Shown here: positions 12,099 through 50,792 of the stretch, piece by piece
Numbering within the stretch: the stretch's first letter is position 1
Layout of the letters: each line of letters begins with the position of its first letter
Assembly: GCA_965601925.1 (NCBI GenBank)
Contig: OZ271854.1
Span: 1,312,001 to 1,376,000, forward strand
DNA length: 64,000 nucleotides
Source of the DNA: Alkalispirochaeta sp.
GTDB taxonomy: Bacteria > Spirochaetota > Spirochaetia > DSM-27196 > Alkalispirochaetaceae
Reading direction: 5' to 3'
Position numbers and translations under genes: made by a program
The notes under the pieces: model-generated
What the model was told of the DNA's origin: nothing
The model's database searches: none
The model's input: the letters and a program-made list of their open reading frames with translations, nothing else

Positions 12099-12188
12099 TT
12101 CCGTCGTTGTCCGCGTCGTCGTCCCACATCCGCATCCGGTGAAACGGTACGTCCATCATCGCAAGGCCCCGTCCCAGCCGCGCTTCGT
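12099..12188 (-). pseudogene. Stub toxin cassette A (90-bp homology arm only)
   Basis: Matches 21012-21101 and nearly 29289-29378 (EARLGRGLAMMDVPFHRMRMWDDDADNDG), then degenerates. Confidence 0.8.
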
Positions 12189-12202
12189 GTGTTCTCGGGC
12201 GC

Positions 12203-12347
12203 GTCTCCCCCAAGTTTCAGCCAGGGGACCGGCCGACGGTGTCGATCACTCAGCAGGAGGAACTTGGAGTCGCGCTCGCCACCGCCGTCCGTTCCCCTGC
12301 GGGTTCCAGCAGAGATGTTTCGTCCTCAGGTGATGTGTGGGGGAGAC
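12203..12347 (-). repeat. Cassette-leader structured element, copy A
   Basis: Outer inverted repeat GTCTCCCCCA/TGGGGGAGAC; inner hairpin 12222-12299 (20/24 arm match); core TCACTCAGCAGG..GAGTCGCG. Confidence 0.85.
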
Positions 12348-12350
12348 CGG

Positions 12351-12545
12351 GCTACGGGTTCCAATTCCTCAGCCCGGCTCGGTGTGGTGATAGGTGCTTT
12401 TACAGAAGTCGGACAGCTACATTTACACCGCGACGACCGCTGTTCGGCTCACTTCGGCCGCATACCCGAGCAGCACGCATTGCGTGCGACCAGGGGCCGA
12501 TCGCCAGCGGTCGTCGTCCGGGCCTGTGGGATTTCCTCCCTCCGC
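12351..12545. repeat. Second palindromic repeat (type 2), shared with 17819-17975
   Basis: High identity to 17819-17975; nested inverted repeats (ACGACCGCTG/CAGCGGTCGT); extra hairpin GCACGCATTGCGTGC in this copy. Confidence 0.75.
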
Positions 12546-12599: not shown

Positions 12600-13343
12600 T
12601 TACGGGAAGTCTCGCATACTTTCAGACCACTGATCGGGGTGTAACACGGGTCGCAATATCAAATCCCCTTCAAAATCATTCGTCGGATTCTCGATTGGCG
12701 AAATCATACGAAGCCAGAACTCATCGTCTCCATTGCGTTGATCGCGGATCACTTCTATGGTGAGCGCATCGGGTCCAAATGTTCCGTCGGTTTCCATTGT
12801 GTTTTCATCAACCCAACGAACCAAGTGAGTGCCTTGAGGCCAGAACGGCATATACCCATCGCTGATGCGTAAAACATAGTCCCATTCGCCCTCAAGATAA
12901 CGATACTCCGTCTGAAGCTCTTGATCTTGAGTATACCAGAAGCCCGAGAAATCAGGTTCATCCAAATCTTGAGAGTTTTCCGCTCGTCTCTGCGAACCAG
13001 AGAAATATCCTGCATTGAGATTATAGAATATGACACTTTGCCCATTATTGCGAAACTCATATCTGCTCGGATTGTCAAATTGTGCAAGTGATAATCGTAT
13101 GTTCTCATTCGTGTTATCATAATATGTCGTATATCGATCTAAGGCGAACCATCGTCCCTTAACCAATAGTGTTGCCTGATCACGTTCCGGTAGTGCTCGG
13201 AACGTAATCGGATGATCAGGTAACGGCACCAAATCGATATTCTGTACTCCCCACCCGTGCTCAAGGAGATACTCCGTCCGGTCTTGCGCCGGTACACAGG
13301 CAATGCATACAAACACCATGATACCCATCAACATCTTCTGCAT
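12600..13343 (-). CDS. Candidate immunity protein (cassette B), exported
   Basis: Starts 15 bp after the toxin-tip stop; GAGGGAG RBS; signal MQKMLMGIMVFVCIACVPA; AT-rich; paralog of 15259-16011. Confidence 0.7.
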   Translation of the reverse strand: MQKMLMGIMVFVCIACVPAQDRTEYLLEHGWGVQNIDLVPLPDHPITFRALPERDQATLLVKGRWFALDRYTTYYDNTNENIRLSLAQFDNPSRYEFRNNGQSVIFYNLNAGYFSGSQRRAENSQDLDEPDFSGFWYTQDQELQTEYRYLEGEWDYVLRISDGYMPFWPQGTHLVRWVDENTMETDGTFGPDALTIEVIRDQRNGDDEFWLRMISPIENPTNDFEGDLILRPVLHPDQWSESMRDFP

Positions 13344-13357: not shown

Positions 13358-13824
13358 TCAATATCCCGGAACCGTCGGGACCCCATTCGGAACGCTCCAA
13401 TCAATTGAATACTCCAACGGATCCCATGGCATCGCCGGTTGGGGTGTACTCGGCGACACAATAAAGAAATCAAATCGGTGGATCTCGTCCAACCGCACCT
13501 CCGTCCGGTCCGATCCATGTGACGACGGACTTTGATACGGATTCATCAGCTCAATGATCAACTCCCCGTCCTCATCCAGACGGAATCCACTCATCATCGT
13601 CGAATGGTGACTCTCGCCCGATTGGGTACTGTTTAGTCGCACGTGCGCCACAAACGCATTCGTGGAGCGATCCATCCCGTTCAGCAAATCGATCGTTACC
13701 TCCGCACCCTCAAACACTTCCTGAAAGTTGAACCGATCCCCCGTCAGCAGCTCCATCGACTCCTCGACCGTGAGGAGCGTATCGTCGCTGAACGCACCCT
13801 CCTCGCGCAGTCGATTGTTCGCTT
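13358..13824 (-). pseudogene. 3' remnant of toxin cassette B (papain/C39-like tip), truncated by IS3
   Basis: Near-identical to 16026-16490; lacks the Cys-containing segment. Confidence 0.85.
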
Positions 13825-13841
13825 TGACCTGCCCCCTGAAA

Positions 13842-14642
13842 CTAGACCACTGCTTGAGTGAGTCCGTCCTCAAAGCTTCGCCAGATTTCTTCCGGCGTGT
13901 GATTGCCAAGCGAGCTGTGTGGCCGGTACCGATTGTACTCATCGCGCCACAAAGCCAGTTTCTCCTGAGCGTCCCTCACGCCCAGGAACAGGTTCTCGTT
14001 GAGGAACTCGTCGCGTAGCTTTCCGTTGAAGCTCTCGACAAAGGAGTTCTCGATCGGCTTGCCCGGCGTGATCAGACACTGCTGAATGCCGCGCTGGATC
14101 GTCCACGCGATCATGGCCCGGGACGTGAACTCCGGCCCGTTATCACTCTTCAAACATTCCGGCTCACCGTGCATGATCATCGATTGCTCCAACGCCCGGA
14201 TGACATCAGCGCTCGAACATGAACGAGCAATTCGTGCTGTGATCAGATACCGTGTGTACTCGTCCAACACGACCAGACACTTCAACGACCGTCCGGATTC
14301 AGTCGTGTCGAAAACGAAATCCAATCCCCAGATCTGATTGGGCCGCATCGCTGCACTGGCCCTATTGCGCTGCACGATGAGCTTCTTCCGGCGTCGTGAG
14401 CGGAGCATCAACTGTTCCTCGCGATAGATCCGGTACACTTGCTTGTGATTCGCTTCACTATGGTCTCGCCGCAGTAACACGTGGATCCGACGATACCCGA
14501 ACCGCTTGTGCCTCTCGGCCAGTTCCTTGATGCGCGCCCGAATCCGAAGATCGTTCGGGTTCTTTGCCTCATACCGACATGTCGATCGATGCAGCGACGC
14601 CAGTTCGCACGCTCGTCGCTCACTGACCCCATGGTGTTTCAA
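13842..14642 (-). CDS. IS3 transposase OrfB (DDE integrase core)
   Basis: WGLDF, LKSDNGPEF, PGKPIENSFVESFNGKLRDE; lies in the -1 frame relative to orfA. Confidence 0.95.
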   Translation of the reverse strand: MKHHGVSERRACELASLHRSTCRYEAKNPNDLRIRARIKELAERHKRFGYRRIHVLLRRDHSEANHKQVYRIYREEQLMLRSRRRKKLIVQRNRASAAMRPNQIWGLDFVFDTTESGRSLKCLVVLDEYTRYLITARIARSCSSADVIRALEQSMIMHGEPECLKSDNGPEFTSRAMIAWTIQRGIQQCLITPGKPIENSFVESFNGKLRDEFLNENLFLGVRDAQEKLALWRDEYNRYRPHSSLGNHTPEEIWRSFEDGLTQAVV

Positions 14643-14677
14643 CGCCCCGACAGCCGATCGTCGCTGATGAGGCGTCG

Positions 14678-14941
14678 TCAGTTTTTTGACAGCACCTCCT
14701 TCATCGCGTCGATCTCAAGCGCCTGGTTGGCGACCAGCCTTTTCAGTCTGGTGTTCTCGTCTTCCAGTTCTTTCAGTCGTCGCGCCTCGCTGGTTGTCAT
14801 TCCGCCATAGCGAGATTTCCACCGGTAAAACGTATTCTCCGCAAACCCGTACTTCCGACAGATCTCCTTCGCCGGAACACCGGACTCGGCTTCCCCCAAG
14901 ATCGCAATGATCTTCTCAACCGAATACTGACCCTTCTTCAT
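14678..14941 (-). CDS. IS3 transposase OrfA (HTH)
   Basis: MKKGQYSVEKII...TFYRWKSRYGG...LKELEDENTRLKRL; ends at an AAAAAAC slippery site. Confidence 0.93.
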   Translation of the reverse strand: MKKGQYSVEKIIAILGEAESGVPAKEICRKYGFAENTFYRWKSRYGGMTTSEARRLKELEDENTRLKRLVANQALEIDAMKEVLSKN

Positions 14942-15012: not shown

Positions 15013-15077
15013 CCACCGCATAGTCGACCGCCGCGCCGACCGCATTCGCTCCCAGGCTCACCAGTGAGTTCACCGCA
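15013..15077 (-). pseudogene. 5' remnant (65 bp) of toxin cassette B
   Basis: Matches 20406-20470 (AVNSLVSLGANAVGAAVDYAV). Confidence 0.85.
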
Positions 15078-15092
15078 TAAGGATTTGGACAC

Positions 15093-15185
15093 GTCTCCCG
15101 ATGTATCATGAGAGGGAGCGGCGAACGGCGCCGGTCACTCAGCAGGAGGAACCTGAAGTCGCGACCGTCACCGCCCGCCGCTCCC
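15093..15185 (-). repeat. Cassette-leader structured element, copy B (divergent)
   Basis: Same core TCACTCAGCAGGAGGAACCTGAAGTCGCG; arms differ in sequence but stay complementary (GGGAGCGGCG.../...CGCCGCTCCC), 15114-15185. Confidence 0.85.
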
Positions 15186-15258: not shown

Positions 15259-16011
15259 CTACGGGAAATCTCGCATGGTTTCAGACCGTTGATCGGGATG
15301 CAACACAGGGTGCAATATCAAGTCGCCTTCAAACGCGTTCTCAGGATTCTCGATTGGCGAGACCATACGCAACCAGAACTGGTCTTCTCGCATCATCCGA
15401 TGCTCTTCGATCACCTCAAACACGATGCGGTTCCCAAATGTATCGTCGGTTTCCAACGTGTTCTCGTCGATCCATCGTACGAGATGGGTTCCTTTGGGCC
15501 AAACTCCGGGATGTCCGTCAGCGACAGATAGAGCAAAATCCCAATGCTCCGAGGAGTCAACATAACGATATTCTCTAAACATATCTGGCGATTCCGAGCT
15601 TTGCCAAACACCTTCTAGTGTTAAATTATCCAATGCTGCATCATTATTCTCTACTTTTATGAAATAGCCTGCTAATATATTGAAACGAGCAAGGGTTAAC
15701 TGCAAAGCCCGACCTTCATTCAGAAGCTCGTATCCTAAAGAGTTTGGATCATTGCCTATCGGTTCAATTTGAGTGTCCGTTATAGAATAAGTTTGATAGT
15801 CATTCTCTAGATGAGAAAACGATGCTTTTATGACTTGACGATCATTAACATATTCTGGCAACGACCGAAACGTAATCGGCTGATCAGGTAACGGCACCAA
15901 ATCGATATTCTGTATTCCCCACCCGTGCTCAAGGAGATACGCCGTTCGGTCTTGCGCCGGTACACAGGCAATGCATACAAACACCATGATACCCATCAAC
16001 ATCTTCTGCAT
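15259..16011 (-). CDS. Candidate immunity protein (cassette C), exported
   Basis: Directly after the cassette C stop; signal peptide; AT-rich core. Confidence 0.75.
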   Translation of the reverse strand: MQKMLMGIMVFVCIACVPAQDRTAYLLEHGWGIQNIDLVPLPDQPITFRSLPEYVNDRQVIKASFSHLENDYQTYSITDTQIEPIGNDPNSLGYELLNEGRALQLTLARFNILAGYFIKVENNDAALDNLTLEGVWQSSESPDMFREYRYVDSSEHWDFALSVADGHPGVWPKGTHLVRWIDENTLETDDTFGNRIVFEVIEEHRMMREDQFWLRMVSPIENPENAFEGDLILHPVLHPDQRSETMRDFP

Positions 16012-16025: not shown

Positions 16026-17652
16026 TTAATATCCCGGAACCGTCGGGACCCCATTCGGAACGCTCCAATCAATTGAATACTCCAACGGGTCCCATGGCAT
16101 CGCCGGTTGGGGTGTACTCGGCGACACAATAAAGAAATCAAATCGGTTGATCTCGTCCAACCGCACCTCCGTCCGGTCCGATCCATGTGACGACGGACTT
16201 TGATACGGATTCATCAGCTCAATGATCAACTCCCCGTCCTCATCCAGACGGAATCCACTCATCATCGTCGAATGGTGACTCTCGCCCGATTGGGTACTGT
16301 TTAGTCGCACGTGCGCTACAAACGCATTTGTCGAGCGATCCATCCCGTTCAGCAAATCGATCGTTACATCCGCACCCTCAAACACTTCCTGAAAGTTGAA
16401 CCGATCCCCCGTCAGCAGCTCCATCGACTCCTCGACCGTGAGGAGCGTATCGTCGCTGAACGCACCCTCCTCGCGCAGTCGATTGTTCGCCTCAATACCG
16501 GTCATGTCGTCACCGGTCATCGCGTTCGCCGCATACAAGGCACTATACAACACGCATCCGTATCCACCTAATGAGACAAACGGTACCTCGCCTTCGTAGC
16601 CATATTCTCGACTTACAAATGCTCTGTTGTCAGGGTCGGTAGCGAACTCCTCAAACTCCTCGCGACTCAGGCTGCTCTCAAATTCAGAGAGATTACCCTC
16701 AAAGTTAGGACCAGCTTCACGTTGAAGGAACCGATTATACGCATCATCTATCCGTTGTTCGTTGATCTGGTCTACGGTTTCACGGCTCAACGCCTCGCCC
16801 AACGCTTCCCGCCAGTTCGCCGCATCGCTCTGATACTCGCCGGCCGTATTCAACTCAGGGAAGAAATGATCCATCGGCCCTTCATTCGGTCGGTAGTTCT
16901 CCGGGTTCAAGAGCCCCGCCACAATCGCCTGCCCAAACGCCTCGTTCCCTTCCAGTCCCCACGCATCCATCAGGTTTCGGTACGTCTCTCCCGTTCGCCG
17001 GTACGCACTCGCCTCCGTCGTCTCGCCCAATACCGCGCGCTCCACCAGGTGCGTCGCTTCATGCGCCATCGCACTTCCCAACATCGCCGAGCTCTCCCGG
17101 TCGTTCCCCGTCAATGCTCGCGACAACACGATCGTGTCCGGGTTGTCCGAGTCATACCGTCCGTACTCGCCCTCCGCCATATCGTCAAACTCACTCTTAA
17201 TCCGTCGCTCCCACACCGCACCCGCTAAGGCCGTGTCGCGTCGGTCCCGGCTGTACGATAACGTGTTCGCCGCATTCAGGATCGCTCGGTTCTCCACACC
17301 CCGTTGCGTCCCCAACGCGCCGCCGACCTTCGCACTCGTCACCCGTACCACATCCGATAATCCTTCCAGGCTCGTCGCTACCAGGTCCAGTCCGACGTCG
17401 TATCCGCCGCTCCCCACGTTGAACAACGCACCGCCTCCGCCAAGGTCCATCTGCAGCACGCCCGCCGATAACTCGTTCCCCTTCTCGTCGGTGATCCCCA
17501 GCATCCGCCCCATGTTTACCACGTTCAGCGATGCGCTCCCGTCGATCGCGTACTCCGTCGCCGCGCCAATCGCACTCGAGGTGATCGTCGCCGCGCTCCG
17601 TAATGCATCCAAGTTAAAAGTATTCTCCGCGAGGGCATCGCCGATCCCGTCG
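16026..17652 (-). CDS. Orphan toxin cassette C: HExxH pre-toxin domain plus papain-like/C39-like tip
   Basis: 17002-17652 matches main gene 28133-28783; HEATH motif; tip has GYGC...HHSTMM...MNPY (Cys-His-Asn order); no signal peptide. Confidence 0.8.
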
Positions 17653-17665
17653 GTCGTTAGACGCA

Positions 17666-17814
17666 CCTCCCCCGAGTTTCAGTCAGGGGGACCGGACGGC
17701 GGTGTCGATCACTCAGCAGGCCCTTCGGGCCAGAAGTCGCGCTCGTCACCACCGTCCGTTCCCCAGCGGGTTCCAGCAGAGATGTCTTGTCCTCAGTGAT
17801 GTGAGGTGGGAGAC
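17666..17814 (-). repeat. Cassette-leader structured element, copy C
   Basis: Hairpin 17687-17764 with GGCCCTTCGGGCC tip and conserved core. Confidence 0.85.
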
Positions 17815-18106: not shown

Positions 18107-18649
18107 TCAGGGAACGTCATCCCGGGTGATTTCAGTAACCACCGCGTCGATAATCAAGAGGTCTTCTGTTGTAGGTAGCAGCACTTCTATCTGCTCTGCC
18201 GTCACCGTGAAAGTAAAAAACCGTTCCGGCCCTACCTCGTTGCTTACTTCGGTGCCGAGAAACTGAAACAAATAGTACACCGTCATCACTCTTTCGGCAC
18301 GTTCAATGTGCTGCACTTCCGTTCGTGCCGCGCTACTCGCATACTCAACGTATCGAATGCCGGTCTCATCGAGGTAAAACGTTCCAAAATAGAACCCATC
18401 TTCGTCTTCTACGTCGATTGCTGAAAGGTCCGGTATCACCGCGAACAACTCATCGAGTGTTCTCGGCTCCACCGGTTCCTGCACTTCGGAAACAGACTCC
18501 TCAGCCTCCGCCGGTACCGGATCGGCGGTCATGACCTCCCGTGCCGATTCCTCCCGCGCACTTCCGCAACTCCATGCTACGAGAAAAAGGAGCACCACCA
18601 GACTCATCCTCACGACCATCATTCCGCGACTGGTTTGAACGTTTACCAT
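18107..18649 (-). CDS. Candidate immunity lipoprotein (cassette D)
   Basis: Overlaps the cassette D stop; lipobox-like LLFLVAWSC. Confidence 0.75.
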   Translation of the reverse strand: MVNVQTSRGMMVVRMSLVVLLFLVAWSCGSAREESAREVMTADPVPAEAEESVSEVQEPVEPRTLDELFAVIPDLSAIDVEDEDGFYFGTFYLDETGIRYVEYASSAARTEVQHIERAERVMTVYYLFQFLGTEVSNEVGPERFFTFTVTAEQIEVLLPTTEDLLIIDAVVTEITRDDVP

Positions 18650-21101
18650 CGTGGTCTGAACTCCCAGTGCAAGTGCGGTCCCGTCGAGTTTCCGGTATTC
18701 CCCACGTTCCCAAACTGGTATCCCGGCGGGAGGGTGAATCGGTAGATGTCCGTCGCCCGCGCCGCTTGAAGCAGATCGTTGAGTTGGTTCGAGGCACGCG
18801 TATTAGGCTGCAAATGCCCATAGATCATATCGAAGTCGGGCGTCCTGGTTCGCAGATTCAACCCATACCCGGCACTCGGATCATTTGGGTTATCCCACCC
18901 AAGCGGATTCATGCCCACTATCACCGTCTCCTCCTGTGTCGTAAACAACGGATGGTTCTGTCCAAAGGTCCTGAGATCTATTGCCTCACCACCGCCCCAG
19001 CCATGCTCACGGCCATCCTCGTAAAGGGAGAATGTCGAAATGTCATCTCTTCCTTGAATCGGATCGATCACTCGCCCATCGCCGATTAACTCATACATCG
19101 GGTTGTTGTTGTCCAGGCTCCACTCGTCCCGGATTCGACCGAACGCCTGTGCAACGTCGTCTTGCGAGTACTGTTCGTTTCGCTCTGCGTCCAGCAACCC
19201 CGGTGCTCCGAACGACCCGTACCGCTGTCCATACAACGCCGCGTCGTACTCCTGGGCAAATCCCTCCATCGAGTTCGCCGCCTCGTACTGCGCCGCAATC
19301 TCCGGTGTCATCGTACCGTTCCGCAGCGCCGTCATGAAGTCAGTCTCGGCGCTCTCTTGCGCCGCATTCACCGCAGCTACCATGCTCCCACCGAACGCAC
19401 CTACGTTGTCGATGTAGTCCCGCTGCATGAAGTATCGCGCCTTGAAGGCTGCTCCCGGATCAAGGGTATGATCTGCGTCGTTCTTCACGTCCGTCGCCCC
19501 TCCGTTGGTCGTGAACGTCCCGTTCTCATACGTCCACCCGGCGTCGATCATCATCTGGTTCGCCTCGGCCTCCGTGATTCCCAAATGCTCGGCAAGCGAC
19601 GCCGCATAGCCACCCTCTCCCTCAAACTCTCGAAGGAGTTCGTCATTCTCGTCGTATACGCCTTTCCGGCCGTCAAAGATCAACTCGCCTTGTGCGGTGA
19701 GTTTCCAATAATCCGCACTCGAATCATACGCCGTGGCCGCATACGCCGCAAAGTCCCCCTGGCCCGCCTGCGCCTTGAGGTACTGGTTGACGTCCTCGGC
19801 AAGGTTCGCGTCGTTCATGATGAAGTCCATCCCATACGTCTCCGCAGCACGCATCGCAAACTCCGTATGGCCCGTCACCGCGCTCACCGTCTCCGCGTTG
19901 TCCCCGTCCGCGATCCCGTCTCGGTAGCTCTCATGACTCAGCACACTCGCCGCCACCAGCTGCTCCTCCAAACTATCCCCGATCGCTCCCAGGTAGATGT
20001 CCTTCCCATTCCCTCCCGCAATCGTCTGCGCGCGTGCTCCTTCGCTCCCCGGTGCCCCGGTCAGGTGTAGCCGGTCCACTCCCTCCAGGATGTTCCCGTA
20101 AGTACTTCGCTCCCCGCGCTTCCCAAAGCTCCATGTGGCGCGTAACGTGTTCTCCGCCGCGGCGTTGTGCGTGTTCTCCTCGATGTATCGGTCGATCCGG
20201 GCCCGCTGGTGTAGGACGTTCGCTCCCATCATTCCGTTCGCCACCAGGTCGACCCCGATGTCGTAGCCGCCGCTTCCCACGTTGAACAGTGCGCCGTTAC
20301 CGCCCAGGTTCATCTCTAACGCACCCGCCGAGAGGGCGTTCCCCTTCTCATCTTCGATTCCCAGCATCCGGCCCACGTTCAATACGTTAATCGCCACCTC
20401 GCGATCCACCGCATAGTCGACCGCCGCGCCGACCGCATTCGCTCCCAAGCTCACCAGTGAGTTCACCGCACCCATGTGCTCCCGGGAGAATCCCGCCAAG
20501 TCGTCCATCTTCGCCAAACTCCCGAAACCGGACTGCGCCAACCCTTGCGCCGCGCCGCCGGCGTAGCCCGCTACCGCACTCTCGCCGAAGGTCGATCGGC
20601 GGAAGCCCCGTTCGTCAAAGTCCATGTCAAAGCTCGCGTCGATCGAGAATGAGTTGATCGCGCTGCTCATCGCCGTCGTCGCTACCGCCTGCGTCGTGCT
20701 CACCCCCACGTTCACCGCCGTCTGCGTGATCGCTCTGCTGCCGTCGACCGCCTTGCCGGCAAGCGTTCCCAACTGGTCGAATCCCTTCGCCATCCCGGCG
20801 CTCGCCAGGCTCACTGCCGTGCTCTTCGCAAAGCTCCCCAACGCGTCGTCCGCGTCCGCGTATCCCGTCGCGATGTCCGTCACCGTAAACGCCGCATTCG
20901 TCGCGATCGTTGCCGCCAACGATACGCCCGCTCCCGCTCCCAACGTCGCCACCGAGACCACCACTCCCGTTACCGTCACGATGTTCGGGGCGCCGAACAG
21001 TCCGTCCGGACTTCCGTCGTTGTCCGCGTCGTCGTCCCACATCCGCATCCGGTGAAACGGTACGTCCATCATCGCAAGGCCCCGTCCCAGCCGCGCTTCG
21101 T
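18643..21101 (-). CDS. Orphan toxin cassette D with M23 (LytM-like) peptidase tip
   Basis: 20536-21101 matches main gene 28813-29378; 19738-20535 matches cassette E; tip has AIDL...YGHL...VGNTGNSTGPHLHWE. Confidence 0.85.
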
Positions 21102-21115
21102 GTGTTATCGGGCGC

Positions 21116-21260
21116 GTCTCCCCCAAGTTTCAGCCAGGGGACCGGCCGACGGTGTCGATCACTCAGCAGGAGGAACCTGAAGTCGCGCTCGCCACCGCCG
21201 TCCGTTCCCCTGCGGGTTCCAGCAGAGATGTTTCGTCCTCAGGTGATATGTGGGGGAGAC
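21116..21260 (-). repeat. Cassette-leader structured element, copy D
   Basis: Near-identical to copy A (offset 8913); hairpin 21135-21212. Confidence 0.88.
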
Positions 21261-42211: not shown

Positions 42212-43650
42212 CGCGCGGTACGAGATCGGCGGCGATCGTTTTGCTCGTACTGATATCTCTATCGGGGTGTCAAATCTACAACGAATGGGAAGATATGAAT
42301 CCGGTAACGGTGGACGCCGCGTTGAATGAAGAGGACGGAGTGATCGCCCTCTCATTTTCCGCCGCGATGGATCGCGCCCGGACGGAGGATGCGATCGAGG
42401 TGCGCCGAGACGGTTCGGTTGTGTTATCGCAGAACGCGTGGACGCAGGGTGCACGGACTTTGACGCTGTCACCCGACGGCGGCATCGAGACCAACGACGT
42501 CATCGTCCTCTCGGTGGAGACCTCGGCGGAGGATCAATACGGAAACTCCCTGGCGGAACGATACGAGCGTACATTTGATTTGCGAGCGGAGACCGATCGC
42601 CCCTTCGTCGTCTCGGTGTCCCCCGACAGCCGGCTCCTCGTCACCGATCTGACGACCGAGATCGTGATAACCGCGTCGGAGTCGCTGGACAGAGAGACGG
42701 TGTTCAACGGTATCTCCATCAGCCCGGACCCCGGATACCTCCTTCTTTTCGATAGCGACGACGCGATCGTTCGCATCCGGCCGAATACACGGCTCGAGCG
42801 GGATACGCGCTACACGATCACCGTCGACACGTCGGTCCGCGATACGGCGGGAAACACGTTTGCCGAGCGTTGGGAGTCGAGCTTTCGGACGGCGGCGGAG
42901 ATCGAACAAGCGGTCGAGTCGGTGCAACTCATACGAACCGGCGAGTTTTTGAGCGACGATACGACGCAATTCATCAACAACACCGCCGGGCTCTCCTTTG
43001 AAAAGGACGACTCGTTTCAGGTTCGCTTTGTCGGGCCTGTTGACGAGTCCGAGCGCGCGTCGGCAATTAGCGTCACGCCCTCGGCCGGAGCCGAGTTCAG
43101 CTGGAACGCCGCGCTGGATACGGCGGTAGTCTCGTTCTCCGAGTCCTTGACGTGGAATACGGAGTACACACTCAACGCCGCCGATACGCGATATCGGTTT
43201 GTTATCGACGGCGCCGCATCGCAGCCGCCCTCGATCGCGCACGTGGTGTTCATTCCGGATATCGACGCGGTGCCGCCCTCATACCCAGTGGCGGAGTTCG
43301 GGAGCGCACTCACGTTCTCTCCGAATCCGGTGGTTCAAAGCGCCTTCGACGTATACGTCGATCGAGCCGCCGGCGCATCGCTGGTGTTCGGGTCGGTGCT
43401 GTCGGCGTTCTCGCTGAGTGCGAGCAATGCCGCGGTCGCCATCGACCTCGATCGAGTCGAAATCGACCCGACCGCCCCGCCCTCGGATCCGGTTCCGGAT
43501 GCCCAGCAAACGGTGGTACGTTTCGTCGGTAACTTCACGAAGGCCGGCGGCACCGACGGCATCGTCACCCTGGAGCTCTCCACCGATCTGGAAGATGATC
43601 TCGGCAACTTCCTCGCGGAACTCTATCGGTTATCCGTAAATGCAGAATAA
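42208..43650 (+). CDS. Second Ig-like (Big_5/SbsA-type) repeat lipoprotein
   Basis: GGAGGAG RBS and GTG start; LSGC lipobox; LSFSAAMD, YTITVDTSVRDTAGN modules. Confidence 0.8.
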   Translation: MTRGTRSAAIVLLVLISLSGCQIYNEWEDMNPVTVDAALNEEDGVIALSFSAAMDRARTEDAIEVRRDGSVVLSQNAWTQGARTLTLSPDGGIETNDVIVLSVETSAEDQYGNSLAERYERTFDLRAETDRPFVVSVSPDSRLLVTDLTTEIVITASESLDRETVFNGISISPDPGYLLLFDSDDAIVRIRPNTRLERDTRYTITVDTSVRDTAGNTFAERWESSFRTAAEIEQAVESVQLIRTGEFLSDDTTQFINNTAGLSFEKDDSFQVRFVGPVDESERASAISVTPSAGAEFSWNAALDTAVVSFSESLTWNTEYTLNAADTRYRFVIDGAASQPPSIAHVVFIPDIDAVPPSYPVAEFGSALTFSPNPVVQSAFDVYVDRAAGASLVFGSVLSAFSLSASNAAVAIDLDRVEIDPTAPPSDPVPDAQQTVVRFVGNFTKAGGTDGIVTLELSTDLEDDLGNFLAELYRLSVNAE

Positions 43651-46642
43651 ATCTACCGCCACGTCCGTTCTCGAACGGCTCTTCGCCCATCCCCTTTCGA
43701 TCGTGATGGTGGCGCTCGCGGTCGTCCTGATGGGTGGTGCCGCGGCAACTCAGATTGAGATCGCGCCGCTTCCCGACGTCGAGCTGCCGAACATCCTGAT
43801 TATCACCGCCCTCGAAGGCCTGCCCGCCGAGGAGATAGAACGGCTCGTGACGGTGCCGATGGAGTCGGCGCTCTCGGGTATTCAAGGGGTCGAGCACGTT
43901 CGATCGATGAGCATTCGAGGGGTGTCGCGCATCGAGTTGGAGCTGGCGTGGGGCTCCGATCCGCAGTCGATCGCGCTCGATGTCCGTCGTGCGGCGGGGC
44001 TCGGATTTGCGTCCCTTCCCGACCGCGCGGAGCTTCCGTTGGTGATTACGCGATCCATCGCGGAGACTCCCGATTTCGTCATTGCACTCATCCCGAGAAC
44101 CGATGAGTCGCCGGACCGCCTCTATCGCGCCGTCGAGACGCAGGTGCTTCCCGCATTCAGAACTCATACCACCGTGGGTAGACTGCGCTCGGCGGGGGCG
44201 TGGCGTCCCGAGGTGCACGTCGAAATCGATCCCGATGCGGCGGCGGCGCTCGATATCGGTACGACGACGATCGCCTCGTTGATCTCGTCGTCGGTCTTCG
44301 ATTTACCGGTAGGGACACTCCGCGAACGCGACCGGGAGATAACACTCACGGCGTCCACGGGCGTCAATACGGTAGCCGATATCGCGGCCCTTCCGATCCC
44401 GAGCGATTCGCCCAGTATTCAACGCCGTCTCGGCGACATTGCTCGTATACGTCTCAACGCGGAACCGGCCACGGGAGCCGTCGTCGTGGACGGAGCGCCG
44501 GCCGTGGTGGTCGAGGTGTATCGATCCGATCGAGCGAGTGTCTTGGCCCTCACGCGCGACGCCTACGCCGCCGTCGGTGAGATTCGACGCAGATTGGGTG
44601 AGCGCGTGGAAATCGCGGTACTTCGCGACGCCGGAAGCGCACTCGGTAGCTTGGTCCGCGGAACGGCGACGGCGTTGGCGATCGGAATAGCGGTAGTGAC
44701 ACTGTTGGTTTCCGCCGGAACGCGCAGTGCGTCACTCGCGACGGCCGTGCTGGCGATACTGCCGGTATCGATTTTCGGTACCATATTCGTGCTGTTTCTC
44801 GGCGAGTTCACCCTCAACACGGTATCGATAACCGGATTCGCCGTCGGATTGGGATTGGTCGTGGACGGCGGAATCATCGTCGTCAACGCCATTCGCCGCG
44901 ACGCTCCGCTGCGCGGCGCCGCCGAGGTCGCCGCGGCGGTGGGAGGTGTGCTTCCGTCGCTCTTCGGATCGATGGTCACGACGATACTCGTGTTCATACC
45001 GGCGATTCTCGTGCCGGGCCGTTTCGGTGCCCTCGTCGCCGAGTTCGTGGTAGTAATCGCCTCGCTTCTCGCGTGGGCGTTTGTGTGCGCAGCCGTACTC
45101 ACTCCGGCGGTCGCTATGTTATCGGGCGTCGATGCGCGCGGTGGGACGCGTGAACGTCGCCGACGGACGCCGGGATCGCGGTTCCAACCTGCGATCAAGA
45201 CGATCTCCTCCGCGGCGAGAGTCCATTGGAAGGCGACACTGTCGGTGATGACGCTCGTCACGGCAGTCGGCGCGGCGCTCATTACCGTCGTCCCGCGCGA
45301 GTTGACGCCGTTTGTGCTGCAAGATCGTGTATCCGGCGAATTGTGGCTTGAGCCGCGCACGACGATCGAGGACGCGAGAGCCGTCGCCGCCTCGATTACC
45401 GAGGAGCTGTCGTCGCTTCCATGGGTCGACCACGCACGCGCCGACATCGGGGTAGTGGCGGATACCCTCGAGGAACGTTCGCGAAGTTTGAACGATCGTA
45501 GTATCGTCCACCTACATATCACCCGCGCTTCTGCCGAACGAGTAACCGAGAGCAGAGTCCGCTCGGACGTCATGCGCATATTCAGCCGATTCGATCCTCT
45601 GTACTCGATCGTGTATCTGCCGCCCGATAGCGTTCAATCCGCGTTGGGCGACACCCCGGTAACGTCGGCGTTGCTTTCGGCGGACTCGAGGTCCGAACTG
45701 GACGGATCGATCACAACGGTGTTGACGGATCTCGGTTCGGTATGGACGCCTCTCACGGAGCGAATGGAGGCGCAAACGGTACTCAACTTCGATACCGATC
45801 GTGTCGCGTTATTGAATCTGGCTCCCGCAACCGTGTTGGAGGAGGTGAACACCGCAGTCGACGGACGGGTGGTCGCCTCGATCGGTGAGGCGACGGATCT
45901 CCTCCCGATTCGGGTACTGCTGGACCCGGACGCGCTCGCCGGGACCGACTCGGTTGCCGAGATTCAGGTACCTGCGGGACAATCGGGCCGGACGGTCGAA
46001 GTGTCGTCGGTAGTCGACTTCGGAAATCGGCTCGCGTTACGGGAACTGAGACGAGTCGACGGCCGTCCGGCGACGATATTTCGCGCCGCCGGCCGCGTCA
46101 CGCCGCGGAGCTCTGCGCCGGTGACGGTCGAGGGTGATATCGATGAGCAAATGCGCTCCTTGGCCGCCATTTCAGCGATTGCACTCATATTGGTGTACTT
46201 GGTGTTGGGCGCCCAGTTCGCCTCCGTACGCCTCCCGCTCTTTTGCCTGGTCGCCATTCCACTCTCGCTTCCCGGCTCGGTGGGCCTCATGCTCGCGGCG
46301 GGCATTTCCATCAACCTCTACTCCATGATCGGGCTACTGGTGGTGATAGGTACGACGATAAACGCCGCCATTCTCTTGATCGCGGAGTTTCGTTCGGCAT
46401 CCAGGCCGCCGGAGGAGATCGTCGCCGAGCGCGCACGAACCGTCGCGATGACCGTGACGACGTCGATCGCCACCGTTCTCCCGATCGTCCTCTCCCGCTC
46501 TCCGGAGACCATTCTTCAAAGACACACCGCTATGCCGATCGTGGGCGGATTGTTATTCGGAACGGTGTGCGTGGTAGCGACCTTTGCGGTGTTTGCACGC
46601 TGGATATCACGTCCCGGTTATTCGGAGCCGGAGGGCCGGTGA
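43640..46642 (+). CDS. RND (AcrB/AcrD/AcrF-family) permease subunit 1
   Basis: PAEEIERLVTVPME, GLVVDGGII, LGAQFAS, AIPLSL motifs; 1000 aa. Confidence 0.9.
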   Translation: MQNKSTATSVLERLFAHPLSIVMVALAVVLMGGAAATQIEIAPLPDVELPNILIITALEGLPAEEIERLVTVPMESALSGIQGVEHVRSMSIRGVSRIELELAWGSDPQSIALDVRRAAGLGFASLPDRAELPLVITRSIAETPDFVIALIPRTDESPDRLYRAVETQVLPAFRTHTTVGRLRSAGAWRPEVHVEIDPDAAAALDIGTTTIASLISSSVFDLPVGTLRERDREITLTASTGVNTVADIAALPIPSDSPSIQRRLGDIARIRLNAEPATGAVVVDGAPAVVVEVYRSDRASVLALTRDAYAAVGEIRRRLGERVEIAVLRDAGSALGSLVRGTATALAIGIAVVTLLVSAGTRSASLATAVLAILPVSIFGTIFVLFLGEFTLNTVSITGFAVGLGLVVDGGIIVVNAIRRDAPLRGAAEVAAAVGGVLPSLFGSMVTTILVFIPAILVPGRFGALVAEFVVVIASLLAWAFVCAAVLTPAVAMLSGVDARGGTRERRRRTPGSRFQPAIKTISSAARVHWKATLSVMTLVTAVGAALITVVPRELTPFVLQDRVSGELWLEPRTTIEDARAVAASITEELSSLPWVDHARADIGVVADTLEERSRSLNDRSIVHLHITRASAERVTESRVRSDVMRIFSRFDPLYSIVYLPPDSVQSALGDTPVTSALLSADSRSELDGSITTVLTDLGSVWTPLTERMEAQTVLNFDTDRVALLNLAPATVLEEVNTAVDGRVVASIGEATDLLPIRVLLDPDALAGTDSVAEIQVPAGQSGRTVEVSSVVDFGNRLALRELRRVDGRPATIFRAAGRVTPRSSAPVTVEGDIDEQMRSLAAISAIALILVYLVLGAQFASVRLPLFCLVAIPLSLPGSVGLMLAAGISINLYSMIGLLVVIGTTINAAILLIAEFRSASRPPEEIVAERARTVAMTVTTSIATVLPIVLSRSPETILQRHTAMPIVGGLLFGTVCVVATFAVFARWISRPGYSEPEGR

Positions 46643-49428
46643 AACGCTCCGTATTTCTCATCGGGATTATCGTTCTGTTCGGTGTCCTGGCGATACGCAC
46701 GATCAGTGTAGGATATTTGCCGGACCGACAAGATCCGCGGGTCAGTGTGCTCGTTCGCTACGACGGAGCGTTCGCCAACGAGGTAGAGCGCACCCTTACG
46801 ATTCCGATCGAGGACGCCATCGCGTCCGTGGACGGTGTGCGCTCCATATCCTCGATATCTCGCGACGGCCAAACGCGCGTAGGAGTTCGTCTGCGACGCG
46901 GTGCACATCTCGATCACGCGGTAGTGCGCGTATTGGATGCGCTCGATCGCGTACTGAGCGACGCACCGACGACCGTCGGGCGCCCCATCGTTACGAGAAA
47001 CGCGGCGGACACGAGGCCCACGTTCATTGCATCGCTTCCGAAGGACCGATTTCGTACACGAGAGGAGATCGAACGCTACTTTGGTCGGGTGGAAGGTGTC
47101 GGCCGCGTTGATGTCGCGGGGTTCCCGCAACAACAGGTCGTTGTGCGACTCCGGGAAGCGTACGACACCAACGTTGCAACCGATATATTTGCCGTTGCGG
47201 AGACGATTCGCGAGGCAAACAGCGTCGTCGGATTGGGCGGCAATAGAGCCTTGCCGATTGTCGCCGACACGCGATTTCGTACGATTGAGGACTTTCGCAA
47301 TCAACGACTCGATGAGGTCAACTCGGTCGGCAGGTTGGCTTCGGTGGAGCGGGACGAACGCGAGCCGGAGTCCACCAGCGTCGTGAACGGTACACCGGCG
47401 GTCGTCGTGTATGTGAGCCCCGCCTCGGGAGCCAACGTCGTGCGCGTTAATCGAGCGCTCCGCGCGTCCATCGGCGCGATTGAACGATCCGAAGTGTTGT
47501 TCGACCAGGGGTCGATCATTGAGGACGCACTCGGCGACGCGCTGCGAGGCTTCGCCGTCGGAAGCGTACTGGTAACCGTTGCACTGCTACTCATTACGCG
47601 CAACGGAAGGCGGAGCATTGCGGCTGCGGCGGCGTTACCCGCAGCGGCATTTGCAGCATTCGCCGCTCTCGGCGCATTCGGGTTGCCCGCCGATGTTCTC
47701 GCCGTATCGGCCCTTGCGGCATCAATGGGCTTCGTCGCCGACGGGGCGGTGGTCCTGGCCATCGAAGGGTCCGCACCGGGTGTCCGACGAGGCCTGCTCG
47801 TCTCGACGATTTCCACCGTTGTCGTCTTCGTGCCGCTGATTCTCGATCCGTCGGGTACCGGCTCATTTTATATAGGATTTGCACTCGTCGTTATAAGCGC
47901 GCTGGTTACCGGTCTCGTATGGGGTCTCTTCTTCATTCCGGCGAAGTCCGCCGGCCGCGCTCCGGAGCGGGAAGACCGAACGACTCCGTCGCCGTTCGCA
48001 CCATCGTGGTTTGGGCGGATGACTCGCGCGGTTCATCGTATGCGGTTCGTCGTGTGGATCGGTATTCTCGCGGTAGTGGGAGTCGCCGTGTGGAGCATCC
48101 ACGATACGCCGATCGGGTTTTGGCCTGAGCTCGACGAGCGTCGTACCGGGATTGTCGTCGAGTATGACGCCGGCACACCGCGGTCGAGGCTCGAAACTGA
48201 AATGTCGAACGCGTACTCGGTGCTTGCGTTGTACGACGAGTATGAAACGATCATCTCCCGAACCGATCGCAGCAGAATCAGCTTCGAGATAACGCACCGC
48301 GCTCAACCGAATCAAAATACCGTCGATACCCTTGTCACGCGCGTTCAAGAGTCGGTGCAGGGTAGTGTATTCCTCATCAATCAGGCTGAGGGGGCGACTC
48401 GAGTGCCGATCCACGTCATCGGAAATGATCCGATAACGACGCAACGAGTCGCATCAGAGCTCGCCGACTACCTGCAAACCGCCGTCCCCGACAGCACAGC
48501 CGTACTGAACTTCAAAAGGCCGCCACGGCAAGCCGAGATGGTGGTCGATACGGAAGCGGTCGTCTCTACGGGGGGACGGCCGAACGAAATACACCGGCAC
48601 GCGTATTGGCTTCTATCGAATCCCGTCGGATTCAAATGGCTCACGGATCGCGAAACCGACGTGCGATTCGGGCGCACCACGCCGATCGAGACGGCGGACG
48701 ACCTTCTTCGAACGACGATCACACCGACCACCGGACGGCCCCTACGGTTAGAATCGGTCGCTACCGTCAGGGAAATCGACCGCCCGGATACGATCTTCAG
48801 AATCGATCGTTCCCGAGCATCGACCATTAGCGTCGAGTTCCCGCGCTCCGCCCAAATACTCTTCGAGCGGACGGTCGACGGGGCGGCTCCCGAATACGAA
48901 GCGCATGCAGACGTTCGTATCGCAATCGATCCGACATTTTTTGAGACGCGGGAAACGGGACGTCGCGCCATAGGGGGCGTCGTCTTGGCGATACTATTCG
49001 TCACGGTATCGATCATCGCCGGCCTTGAACACGTTCGCGACGGCCTCTTGGCAGCCCTGGTCGCGGTACCGTCGGTAGTCATACCGGCGACGGTCGCCCG
49101 CTTTGCGTACGACGGAATCTCCGAGCCGGTTCTATTGGCGCTTCTCTTGTGTGGCGGAGTAGGCGTCAACAACGCGGTTGTCGTCCTTTCCGCCGCCGGA
49201 AAAGATGGGGCGAAATCCTTGGTTGAGGTGCTATGGCGTAAGATACCGTCGCTTCTCGCCGCAGGGGCAACAACGATTCTCGGCGTTCTGCCGCTCGTCG
49301 TCGTGGGAGGCCGCGCTCGCGGCGTCGTAGCGCCGGTCTCCATTACCCTGGCGATCGGTACCGTCGTCGCCCTCGCGGCGACGATCGTAGTGCTGCCGAT
49401 CGGTCGGCGCGGAAAACCTGCGCCTTAG
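46639..49428 (+). CDS. RND permease subunit 2 (shorter, divergent)
   Basis: EVERTLTIPIED, GFVADGAVV, GVGVNNAVV, TTILGVLPL; GTG start overlapping the previous stop. Confidence 0.85.
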   Translation: MKRSVFLIGIIVLFGVLAIRTISVGYLPDRQDPRVSVLVRYDGAFANEVERTLTIPIEDAIASVDGVRSISSISRDGQTRVGVRLRRGAHLDHAVVRVLDALDRVLSDAPTTVGRPIVTRNAADTRPTFIASLPKDRFRTREEIERYFGRVEGVGRVDVAGFPQQQVVVRLREAYDTNVATDIFAVAETIREANSVVGLGGNRALPIVADTRFRTIEDFRNQRLDEVNSVGRLASVERDEREPESTSVVNGTPAVVVYVSPASGANVVRVNRALRASIGAIERSEVLFDQGSIIEDALGDALRGFAVGSVLVTVALLLITRNGRRSIAAAAALPAAAFAAFAALGAFGLPADVLAVSALAASMGFVADGAVVLAIEGSAPGVRRGLLVSTISTVVVFVPLILDPSGTGSFYIGFALVVISALVTGLVWGLFFIPAKSAGRAPEREDRTTPSPFAPSWFGRMTRAVHRMRFVVWIGILAVVGVAVWSIHDTPIGFWPELDERRTGIVVEYDAGTPRSRLETEMSNAYSVLALYDEYETIISRTDRSRISFEITHRAQPNQNTVDTLVTRVQESVQGSVFLINQAEGATRVPIHVIGNDPITTQRVASELADYLQTAVPDSTAVLNFKRPPRQAEMVVDTEAVVSTGGRPNEIHRHAYWLLSNPVGFKWLTDRETDVRFGRTTPIETADDLLRTTITPTTGRPLRLESVATVREIDRPDTIFRIDRSRASTISVEFPRSAQILFERTVDGAAPEYEAHADVRIAIDPTFFETRETGRRAIGGVVLAILFVTVSIIAGLEHVRDGLLAALVAVPSVVIPATVARFAYDGISEPVLLALLLCGGVGVNNAVVVLSAAGKDGAKSLVEVLWRKIPSLLAAGATTILGVLPLVVVGGRARGVVAPVSITLAIGTVVALAATIVVLPIGRRGKPAP

Positions 49429-50792
49429 CGCAATATTCCCCGAAGTCGCTCCGCTTGACGCCCGGTAGCGGTAATAAGCGCCTGTTCGAGGCGCGCGTTG
49501 AAAACCGGTAACGCGGCGATTTGAGTGAGAACCAACTGTGCGTGTAACACATATGGATTATCCGGGAGCGCGAGCATGGCGATCACCGGATCGACGGCGA
49601 ACGACTCACCGCTTGTCAAAGCCGTCTCGACGCGTTCGTTAACCTCCGCAGGCAGCAGAAGCGGCGCGTCGTCAAAGCCGTCGATGTTCAAGAGTCGTCT
49701 CACCTCTTCGCGAGTGAGCGCTGCGTGCTGTGTCGTCGGATTCAGCAGTATCGCCTTCTCCAAAAGAGGCTGGGCGGTCGTGAAGGAGTACTGCTCCGAC
49801 TGAGCGGCGGCCGACTGCCACAATCGCACATAGTACGTCTGCGAGAGACGGGAAAATATCTCAAGGTCGACGGCGCTGCCGATGGCGCTCGTCTCCGGTT
49901 CGCTTGTCCATAGAGCATTGAGTATCTGAATCTCGGGAAAGGCATCGGTCGTCTCGACGAGCTCGGCCGGAATAGCGGTAACCCCCGAGCCGGCAAACCG
50001 CGTCGTCGACTCTCGCGCCCAGCTATCGGCCGACAGAGACGATAGGATCGCATTCAACTCGATCTGTTCGCGCTCCATCCGATAGTCCGAAAAAAGAGCG
50101 ATACGCGCGATGCGCACCAACGCCGATAACTCAACTTGTCCCAGTTGAGAAAGCACGTTCGATCGAACGGCCAAATCCTGCGGGCGAAATCCGTACCGCG
50201 CCGCGCGTATGCCGCTCACCGCCAAAACGTCCTCCAAGCGTTCCGAGGAGAGAAGCGCGACGATGTAGGAGTCGAAGGCCTGCGCCGAAAATGATGCGGG
50301 ATCCTCGGCCCATGCCGCATCGAAGTCATCGAGTGCCGCGTCGATGTCTTCGGACGCCAAGCGACTCATCCCGCGCAATACGCGAAATGTGGCGTTCGCA
50401 CTTCTCTCGAGAGCTCTACTGGTGGCGTCGATCGATAGCTCGAAATCACCGGTCTCGAGCGCAACGACCGCAAGACCGCCGTCGATACGATCGAGCAACG
50501 GTTCGGGGGTGCGGTTATCGATTCGCTCCACGGCGTGGAGAAGCGCGACCTTCGCGGCTTCGCGCTGACCGCGACCGTACAACACCTCACCCAGTTCGAC
50601 CAGATCGGCTGATGTATTCCGGTCCGCGAGCGCAGCCTCCAACGCGCGCGCCAACTCCAAATCGGCACTCACGACACCACCATCGACTTGCGTCTGTTCG
50701 GACGCCGATATCTCTTCGGTGGATGAGTCCGACGCGGCGGTGCAGGAAACCAGCCCGACTACCAAGACGATGGTATATACCAAGAACCGCAT
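49425..50792 (-). CDS. TPR-containing lipoprotein
   Basis: Lipobox-like GLVSC and helical TPR-like repeats; convergent with the RND operon. Confidence 0.75.
   Translation of the reverse strand: MRFLVYTIVLVVGLVSCTAASDSSTEEISASEQTQVDGGVVSADLELARALEAALADRNTSADLVELGEVLYGRGQREAAKVALLHAVERIDNRTPEPLLDRIDGGLAVVALETGDFELSIDATSRALERSANATFRVLRGMSRLASEDIDAALDDFDAAWAEDPASFSAQAFDSYIVALLSSERLEDVLAVSGIRAARYGFRPQDLAVRSNVLSQLGQVELSALVRIARIALFSDYRMEREQIELNAILSSLSADSWARESTTRFAGSGVTAIPAELVETTDAFPEIQILNALWTSEPETSAIGSAVDLEIFSRLSQTYYVRLWQSAAAQSEQYSFTTAQPLLEKAILLNPTTQHAALTREEVRRLLNIDGFDDAPLLLPAEVNERVETALTSGESFAVDPVIAMLALPDNPYVLHAQLVLTQIAALPVFNARLEQALITATGRQAERLRGILR

Follow-up and report, generated by a model that had tools for sequence, protein, structure and literature searches.

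A giant Sec-exported protein, its cassette array and a divergent RND-type operon in Alkalispirochaeta sp.: a probable polymorphic toxin locus of spirochetes

What function can be assigned to an exported protein of more than 3000 amino acids (aa) whose gene lies between a row of its own truncated copies and a divergent operon of efflux type? The question is raised by a stretch of 64,000 nucleotides from Alkalispirochaeta sp. (contig OZ271854.1 of assembly GCA_965601925.1), which is called the window here. It covers positions 1,312,001-1,376,000 of a single-contig genome of 5.05 Mb with 60.1% G+C, and the coordinates of features refer to the window. The initial annotation had described a full-length gene of ~3110 aa with a small exported partner, five truncated cassettes and a divergent envelope operon of eight genes, and had proposed a polymorphic toxin locus with a distinct carrier and delivery class. 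The current work indicates that the locus is very probably a polymorphic toxin system, and a functional coupling between the giant protein and the neighboring resistance-nodulation-division (RND) module is likely. With moderate confidence, the locus is further read as a spirochete-specific polymorphic toxin class, in which the N-terminal domain of the giant would be coupled to a machine made of RND permeases, a membrane-fusion protein (MFP), an outer-membrane factor (OMF) and Big_5 proteins.

The giant gene, its paralogs and its family

The giant gene is located on the minus strand. Its first ATG opens a reading frame of 3150 codons (26965..36417), and the start common to all three paralogs, MRRIGIAV, gives a full-length gene of 3110 aa (26965..36297). 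A small open reading frame (ORF) of 139 aa with a signal peptide (26532..26951, minus strand) overlaps the stop of the giant and has no Pfam or NCBIfam family. Both ORFs were confirmed as initially annotated, and the smaller is a candidate immunity protein for the expressed tip. A complex prediction for this tip (alignment A4) and the 139-aa ORF returned a score of 0.01, which counts neither for nor against binding.

The giant protein consists of a signal peptide, an N-terminal domain (N-domain), a long Ala/Glu-rich helical stalk, a conserved C-region, a HExxH domain and a variable tip; it has no match to any Pfam or NCBIfam family. The signal peptide MRRIGIAVLIAACTGTVVGQ (36238..36297, minus strand) forms a hydrophobic peak and is identical in all three paralogs. 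Judged from its letters it is ambiguous, and may be of the signal peptidase I type or carry a lipobox through 'LIAAC'. The family-defining N-domain (34927..36291, minus strand), ~450 aa with W/E-rich helical motifs, is matched by the profile of alignment A6 with an E-value of 7.9e-127 and is a candidate trafficking domain. Signal peptide and N-domain are followed by ~1500 aa rich in Ala, Glu and Arg.

The conserved C-region (aa 1950-2830 of the 3150-aa ORF; 27928..30570, minus strand) was used as the family query and contains the motifs GLFNFHVGYAP, AGYGEMGRI and WDDDADNDG. An AlphaFold2 (AF2) model of aa 2100-2830, based on 48 aligned sequences, reached a mean predicted local distance difference test (pLDDT) of 80 and is mainly helical with small sheets. 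With the whole model, Foldseek gave no match at E<=1e-3, and in VIA-align the best of 48,161 chains reached a Z of 7.2, the rows being helical bundles and weak zincin matches only; all matches of a language-model atlas search with the C-region were below 0.9. A Gly/Ala/Val-rich hydrophobic stretch lies 3' of the WDDDADNDG motif (29188..29280, minus strand). It was found in a hydropathy scan of the giant and its relatives, occupies the same position across the family in hydropathy plots and alignments, and is possibly a membrane-inserting or membrane-entry element. A Gly-rich LGGGGALFNVGSGG segment lies between it and the HExxH domain (28096..28443, minus strand), a small zincin-like domain with HEATH at 28180-28194 and the family consensus HEGxH...E. 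Structure comparison of this domain produced weak matches to the minigluzincins abylysin and selecase in Foldseek (E 0.2-0.6) and weak zincin rows in VIA-align (Z 5.5-6.8; AsaP1 with Z 5.8 and a root-mean-square deviation of 2.7 over 101 residues). By analogy, the HExxH domain is a candidate releasing peptidase, the counterpart of the PT-HINT domain, which was not found by Pfam in the giant of the window.

When the genome was searched by tblastn with the giant, two further full-length genes were detected, at 4.15-4.16 Mb (locus B, 3070 aa) and at 4.32 Mb (locus C, 3117 aa); locus B carries one further cassette. Over aa 40-2300, paralogs B and C are 87% and 62% identical to the gene in the window. 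The last ~320-350 aa and the downstream ORFs differ among the three paralogs. This pattern of conserved carriers with different ends was also found outside the genome. HMMER searches with the C-region against 1.84 billion representative proteins gave 475 matches at E<=1e-3 and 127 at E<=1e-30. Many of them are signal-peptide giants of 2000-4170 aa, and many others are proteins of 600-1300 aa starting mid-query, as expected of cassettes or contig fragments. When the last 230 aa were compared by BLAST among 136 family members, 39 clusters resulted, 16 of them singletons; this set comprises all members with >=150 aa past the conserved region, after four database duplicates of this genome were removed and the second cassette of the window (cas2) was added by hand. 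The C-termini of homologs are thus not invariant. The six tip types of this genome belong to six different clusters, each common to distant carriers, and the expressed tip recurs on a 1300-aa cassette of genome G210 (30% identity over 362 aa). Here and below, G-numbers denote genomes of a phylum sample of 401, and L-numbers denote other loci, mostly from metagenome-assembled genomes (MAGs).

A pattern scan with one genome per species yielded 27 loci, 26 of them in MAGs labeled Spirochaetota, with the labels Spirochaetaceae, Oceanispirochaeta, Sediminispirochaeta and Spirochaeta. The kinship with other large spirochete proteins that had been suggested at first is supported for the phylum by these loci and by N-domain giants in many families. 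The single non-spirochete label among the 27, Planctomycetota, belongs to L017, where a 3078-aa member lies downstream of HlyD and two Big_5 genes; this would reflect a binning error or gene transfer.

A region of this genome 3' of the locus B cassette (L001; 4,142,001-4,162,000) contains two similar exported ORFs of ~215 aa, a 680-aa ORF, a 339-aa protein with a NADase_transloc-like F5/8 type C domain, a leucine-rich-repeat lipoprotein and three copies of the dispersed repeat that is described with the cassettes. It may be a further array of partner genes.

Tips, partner genes and silent cassettes

The variable module of the expressed gene (26965..28132, minus strand) was delimited by its divergence from the third cassette (cas3), which starts at 28133. 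This tip has no Pfam match. Alignment with eight relatives of its cluster revealed HPGID and TGxHxHxE motifs, that is, the HxxxD and HxH pattern, and an M23/LytM-type domain was placed at about 27013-27408 (minus strand), with HPAID and HAHH in the A4 consensus. The top Foldseek matches of the tip model, at a pLDDT of 59, are all M23 proteins (LytM, lysostaphin, ShyA, EnpA and zoocin A; E from 7e-4). The tip of paralog B matches Pfam M23 (PF01551) with 35.3 bits against a cutoff of 28.7, and the tips of cas1 and cas2 contain M23 motifs below the threshold. For the tip shared by cas3 and cas4, which has no Pfam match, a language-model search gave a lead to C39/papain-like cysteine peptidases with a score of 0.93. 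Searches of PDB sequences with three tips returned nothing useful.

Cell-wall domains are also found on other carriers. Among 43 short homologs picked for complete tails, Pfam recognized M23 above its cutoff in two (P0085 and P0149) and weakly in one more, N-acetylmuramidase in one (P0118) and NlpC/P60 in one (P0132); a further weak match, of M48 type, fell on the HExxH region of one homolog. Among 15 giants, M23 exceeded the cutoff in one (P0016). Where they are readable, the tips are predicted from sequence to be enzymes acting on the cell wall, mostly peptidoglycan hydrolases, which fits the exported location of the partner proteins.

Such partners follow the tips with great regularity. In the window, an ORF with a signal peptide or lipobox, as read by eye, lies behind every tip or copy. 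In the relatives, 19 loci show the 3' end of the giant, and in 16 of them an exported ORF follows on the same strand, as the initial annotation would lead one to expect; the three exceptions, L026-L028, are taken up below. Partners there include exported ankyrin-repeat proteins, FGE-sulfatase-like lipoproteins, F5/8-type-C-like proteins and TPR proteins. The association was examined in 22 pairs of tip and partner, of which 8 belong to this genome and 14 to relatives. Of 231 pairings, 13 have homologous tips, and in 9 of these 13 the downstream ORFs are homologous as well, compared with 4 of the 218 others. Three of the four discordant pairings rest on tip matches that are weak or short, with 28-137 residues aligned; cas3 and L011, which make up the remaining one, match over 206 aa with an E-value of 2e-16. 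Partner ORFs therefore appear to co-vary with the tip type, as immunity genes would.

Truncated copies of the giant gene, lacking its 5' part, are arranged 3' of it on the same strand. The five cassettes counted at first are better described as three intact copies, one split by an IS3-family insertion sequence and two stubs; the alternative C-termini were borne out, with four distinct types. cas1 (22588..25728, minus strand; 1046 aa) corresponds to aa 2172-2642 of the giant, shares with it a block of 1052 bp at 97.7% identity and ends in the tip with the weak M23 motif. cas2 (18643..21126, minus strand; 827 aa) corresponds to aa 2347-2642 and has an M23-like tip; it shares a block of 566 bp with the giant at 98.1% identity and 1376 bp with cas1 at 97.1%. 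cas3 (16026..17666, minus strand; 546 aa) corresponds to aa 2543-2808, with a block of 656 bp at 98.9% identity. The shared blocks are thus 97-99% identical over 566-1376 bp, and beyond them every copy has its own C-terminus. At the position of the HExxH domain, cas1 and cas2 carry a different module, with SHESY in place of HEATH.

Each intact cassette is followed by its own exported ORF on the minus strand. The ORF behind cas1 (21560..22600) is homologous to the ORF behind the same tip type in L005, and the lipoprotein-like ORF behind cas2 (18107..18649) is homologous to its counterpart in L023; the ORF behind cas3 occupies 15259..16011. The remnant cas4 (13358..13942, minus strand) has the tip of cas3 (97%) and is cut by the IS3-family element, whose transposase genes (13842..14941, minus strand; orfA 14678-14941, orfB 13842-14642) are inserted in it; an exported ORF behind it (12600..13343, minus strand) is 56% identical to the ORF behind cas3. 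The two stubs are a cassette 5' end with upstream repeat (12096..12353, minus strand), 98% identical to 21009-21266, and a second remnant at 15013..15185. Similar arrays were detected in G210 and G317, and in G323 a giant of 3699 aa and a 155-aa lipoprotein are followed by five or more cassettes, behind every one of which lies an exported ORF. Taken together, variable tips, co-varying partners and cassettes elsewhere largely support the polymorphic toxin layout that had been proposed for this locus.

Some further details of the array were noted. The ORFs behind cas3 and cas4 share N-terminal ends at 98% and C-terminal ends at ~82% DNA identity around a divergent middle, and the tips in front of them are 97% identical; by these patterns they may represent a mosaic or diversifying immunity gene. 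A 141-aa lipoprotein gene (11552-11977, minus strand) lies directly behind the stub at 12096-12353 and may be an orphan partner left by deletion. A GC-rich repeat of ~160-270 nt abuts the 5' end of every cassette (12195-12453, 17667-17921, 21108-21370 and 25638-25905), folds slightly better than shuffled sequences (z -2.4) and matches no Rfam family; Rfam detected zero RNA families in 11000-37000. Other copies of it occur near 2.36, 3.11, 3.61, 3.94, 4.26, 4.34 and 4.93 Mb and at loci B and C. The cassettes of G323 likewise begin with a repeated leader. The idea that the repeat serves solely as a cassette-specific recombination site was rejected, since copies are also found between unrelated housekeeping genes. 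Contigs were compared from four sequencing runs of one sample and one study; in X1 and X2, the unique tip region 25876-28162 forms one contig with zero differences, and the cassette copies account for apparent joints.

The divergent operon and its linkage to the giant

The operon diverges from the giant across a gap of 424 bp, and its eight genes on the plus strand were confirmed as initially annotated. They encode a TPR lipoprotein (36721..37476) that is kept next to relatives of the giant, a 160-aa lipoprotein of no known family (37476..37958), an OMF of the OEP/TolC family (37921..39357), a HlyD-type MFP lipoprotein (HlyD_D23; 39354..40724), the Ig-like lipoproteins Big_5 A (40721..42211) and Big_5 B (42256..43650), the latter used as operon marker, and the ACR_tran permeases RND1 (43640..46642) and RND2 (46615..49428). 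By Pfam, all components of a tripartite RND system are present (ACR_tran twice, HlyD_D23 and OEP). A convergent gene for a TPR protein (49425..50858, minus strand) travels with the operon in relatives. In terms of fold both permeases are ordinary, with MdtB, MexB and AcrB as best solved relatives and MdtB as that of RND1. Their sequences are very divergent, scoring 308 and 157 bits against an NCBIfam cutoff of 1250, below the level of curated multidrug RND proteins. The Asp-Asp relay of transmembrane helix 4 was not found: RND2 aligns A-D-G to the V-D-D of 8f3e, and RND1 reads VVDGG by eye. Both RND paralogs thus have Asp-Gly where AcrB-type pumps have the Asp-Asp pair.

The operon has no ABC gene, the locus has no RTX repeats and the giant has a Sec-type signal peptide, and a type I secretion system (T1SS) is accordingly not indicated. 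No Rhs/YD, two-partner secretion (TPS), filamentous hemagglutinin (FHA), RTX, CdiB, VgrG or PAAR family was found by Pfam among the 26 window proteins scanned, in agreement with the initial annotation; the rest of the genome was not searched.

The proximity of giant and operon is repeated in other species. Among 20 MAG loci with visible upstream sequence, 9 have OEP, HlyD, Big_5 or RND genes in the same order, and 3 have the TPR lipoprotein only. In the phylum sample, where the C-region occurs in 20 of the 401 genomes, the module adjoins the giant in 7 of 11 neighborhoods examined. In G030 and G057 the two diverge, as in the window. In G323, G296, G240 and G302 they point the same way and the giant directly follows the second RND gene; in G288, with the same orientation, it follows Big_5 B.

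The Big_5 B marker was detected in 102 of the 401 genomes, far more widely than the C-region. Ten operons were taken from genomes without a C-region match, and seven of them adjoin an ORF of 1843 to >3400 aa. BLAST barely links these seven giants to the protein of the window, and whole-protein phmmer searches with the latter found nothing, owing to composition filters; a hidden Markov model of the N-terminal ~480 aa, built from 52 members, matches all seven at their N-termini (E 9e-50 to 2e-10). With the A6 alignment of the N-domain (20 rows), matches were found in 81 of the 401 genomes, in giant-size open frames where the contig allows, and N-domain giants of 2000-4580 aa occur in many families. 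N-domain and Big_5 marker are both present in 73 genomes and both absent from 291; the N-domain alone was found in 8, all of them fragmented assemblies of 60-520 contigs each. Where both lie on one contig (40 genomes), they are 1.5-16.5 kb apart in 38, and the linkage expected from the initial annotation is consistent, within 17 kb; G061 (91 kb) and G275 (361 kb) depart from this.

In one family with 75 sampled genomes (3.9-4.9 Mb), N-domain giants of 4110-4492 aa were found, with three copies in some genomes. Alignment of the copies extends from the N-terminus to about aa 3950-4170, beyond which they differ, a small exported ORF lies behind each giant, further cassettes are present at two loci (L072 and L078), and one giant ends in an M23 motif. 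Pfam PT-HINT (PF07591) was recognized in two N-domain giants of this family, with 64.7 and 88.7 bits. G212 and G318, of a family other than that of the window, contain three N-domain giants each, of ~4400-4500 aa; multi-copy paralogy is not peculiar to the genome of the window.

Given this linkage, the RND module may be the export or display route of the giant, a proposal held here with some reserve. The fuller version, offered more tentatively, is that the module is an RND-energized secretion or display system for Sec-exported giants, which are recognized by their N-domain, and that it serves a polymorphic toxin class across the phylum. The steps could be as follows. Sec would export the giant protein, the signal peptide being the visible part of this step. 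The N-domain would most likely engage the adjoining machine, as its linkage suggests, and the giant would be carried to the outer membrane or held there. The helical stalk of ~2000 aa would present the C-terminal module, and the hydrophobic Gly/Ala-rich segment and the HExxH domain, on the model of the releasing peptidases in polymorphic toxins, would bring the tip into the periplasm of a neighboring cell and cut it free; in distant relatives, PT-HINT stands in place of HExxH. There the tips would act as M23 enzymes in the expressed gene and two cassettes and, following the papain-like lead, as another peptidase in the third. The exported or lipoprotein product of the downstream gene would protect sister cells, as the co-variation of tips and partners implies. 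The presumably silent cassettes, through blocks of 0.57-1.4 kb at 97-99% identity, could allow tip-plus-immunity swaps by homologous recombination, and one operon could serve paralogs at other loci in trans.

Several observations weigh against this interpretation. RND pumps are known for small molecules and lipids, and none is known to export a protein that is folded or 3000 aa long. In this genome the operon lies beside just one of the three paralogs and is lacking at loci B and C, which are flanked by DUF2161, glyoxalase and histidine kinase genes and by TRAP-type transporter and phosphoenolpyruvate carboxylase genes, respectively. Unrelated genes lie upstream in 8 of the 20 MAG loci, and the module is not nearby in 4 of the 11 neighborhoods (G210, G317, G329 and G275). 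In 29 of the 102 genomes with the Big_5 marker, an N-domain giant was not detected; therefore, the basic job of the operon may not need the giant. Related genomes are not independent and co-occurrence statistics overstate the support, for which reason counts and not a P value are given as evidence. On the toxin side, Pfam recognized no domain in 37 of the 43 short homologs and in 14 of the 15 giants, and the AF2 model of the expressed tip is poor. Finally, in a sub-branch of ~2000 aa (L026-L028) the divergent operon is complete, the tips form one conserved cluster, and the giant is not followed by an ORF on the same strand. This sub-branch may be a non-toxin branch of the giant family, and it hints that the ancestral role of the giant/operon pair was perhaps not toxin delivery.

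The alternative that survives these data best also sees a polymorphic toxin here and assigns the operon to another task, such as self-protective efflux, lipid or small-molecule handling, or mere co-regulation, the giant leaving the cell by vesicles, lysis or an unknown porin. The wide spread of the operon marker (102 genomes compared with 20 for the C-region), the operons without a detected giant, the resemblance of the permeases to ordinary multidrug-type RND proteins, and the fact that loci B and C function, if at all, without a local operon copy would all be accommodated. It is nevertheless considered unlikely, though deserving of attention, because the linkage tracks the N-terminal domain, the part that specifies trafficking in known polymorphic toxins, across families with unrelated C-regions, and because the giant stands directly behind RND2 in four genomes, like the last gene of the operon.

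A second alternative takes the giant for a structural or assembly part of the envelope machine, for example a periplasmic scaffold, with a tip that opens the cell's own wall; on this view the toxin-like variation came second, and the cassettes are duplicates undergoing decay. The sub-branch L026-L028 would suit such a part, and specialized M23/LytM domains of envelope-spanning machines, such as the LytM domain of PrgK, are among the fold matches. A scaffold would hardly have diverse tips shuffled between carriers, downstream exported ORFs that co-vary with the tip type, or relatives with PT-HINT, and decay does not agree with open frames of 546-1046 aa and blocks of 97-99% identity in the cassettes; this alternative is judged improbable. 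That the locus is a functionless by-product of local duplication and insertion-sequence activity, with pseudogene debris for cassettes and an operon adjacent by chance, can be dismissed almost entirely, since the IS3 element, the dispersed repeat in the array and the two stubs, which are clearly debris, are outweighed by the same architecture in genomes of other families and by linkage within 17 kb in 38 of 40.

Relation to known toxin and export systems

Polymorphic toxins are classed by the trafficking domain at their N-terminus and by the secretion system that recognizes it (type V, type VI and type VII systems, PVC, MuF and others). If the polymorphic toxin reading with an N-domain coupled to the RND module is adopted, one bacterial phylum appears to have its own class, with a carrier for which no database model exists and whose N-domain is conserved. 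The genes that accompany it encode none of the known protein secretion systems; they encode a modified RND efflux assembly that includes two Ig-like lipoproteins. Of the distinct carrier and delivery class proposed at first, the carrier has no Pfam or NCBIfam model; the delivery part is not supported in the form proposed and is still drawn from gene linkage. Should this assembly prove to be the route of export, RND machinery would join the engines of protein secretion, and the module, once proven as a secretion system, would be categorically new. It would also provide a handle on how spirochetes place large proteins on or through their unusual outer membrane. Even the cautious reading yields predicted cell-wall hydrolases acting in the periplasm, in many tip families, with matched candidate inhibitors that are exported. 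The N-domain can serve as a marker for such loci in free-living spirochetes and in other families of the phylum. Full-text literature, subscription journals and supplements lying outside the search, yielded no account of the N-domain family or its association with an RND operon.

The closest published category is that of Sec-dependent ('T2SS') polymorphic toxins with a pre-toxin releasing domain, which were catalogued by Zhang et al. 2012 (PMC3482391). Table 1 of that paper gives no signature neighbor genes for the Sec-dependent route, and the passages searched contain no TolC, RND, AcrB or M23. A spirochete example is found in PMC4751964, where LA_3725 of Leptospira interrogans appears as a large protein with an N-terminal membrane segment and PT-HINT. 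As far as these sources were consulted, the window agrees with this category in signal peptide, long stalk, candidate peptidase-type domain at the pre-toxin position, variable C-terminal putative toxin, downstream candidate immunity gene and orphan cassettes; it differs in a constant region without a Pfam or NCBIfam model and in the HExxH domain at the pre-toxin position.

With the CdiA/CdiB (type V secretion), Rhs and MafB systems, the locus shares the layout of full gene, candidate immunity gene and orphan tip/immunity array, as well as homology blocks that would allow tip replacement. Unlike them, the scanned locus has no TPS, FHA, VENN, YD repeats, DUF1020, CdiB, VgrG or PAAR by Pfam, its targets appear to be periplasmic, namely the cell wall, and its candidate immunity proteins are exported. 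Amidase and muramidase effectors of type VI secretion and M23 bacteriocins such as lysostaphin and zoocin A are cell-wall hydrolases countered by periplasmic protective proteins, as is predicted for the tips and partners here. In contrast to these, the predicted enzyme of the window is the tip of a giant carrier and would be exchangeable by cassette, neither delivered by type VI secretion nor a free bacteriocin.

On the side of the operon, MdtABC-TolC and MuxABC-OpmB are similar in having an OMF, a HlyD-type MFP and two adjacent RND permeases, and MdtB is the nearest solved relative of RND1. The operon of the window differs by the addition of two Big_5 lipoproteins, a TPR lipoprotein and a 160-aa lipoprotein, and by its linkage to the giant. 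Protein export through a TolC-type duct is known for T1SS exporters of bacteriocins and RTX proteins, and MacAB-TolC exports the enterotoxin STII from the periplasm. Both resemble the locus in placing an MFP and a TolC-type duct beside a secreted toxin, and MacAB in particular shows a periplasmic protein intermediate leaving through TolC. Those systems, however, are energized by ABC proteins and carry small or unfolded cargo, whereas the system of the window has RND proteins in the inner membrane and its cargo would be ~3000 aa.

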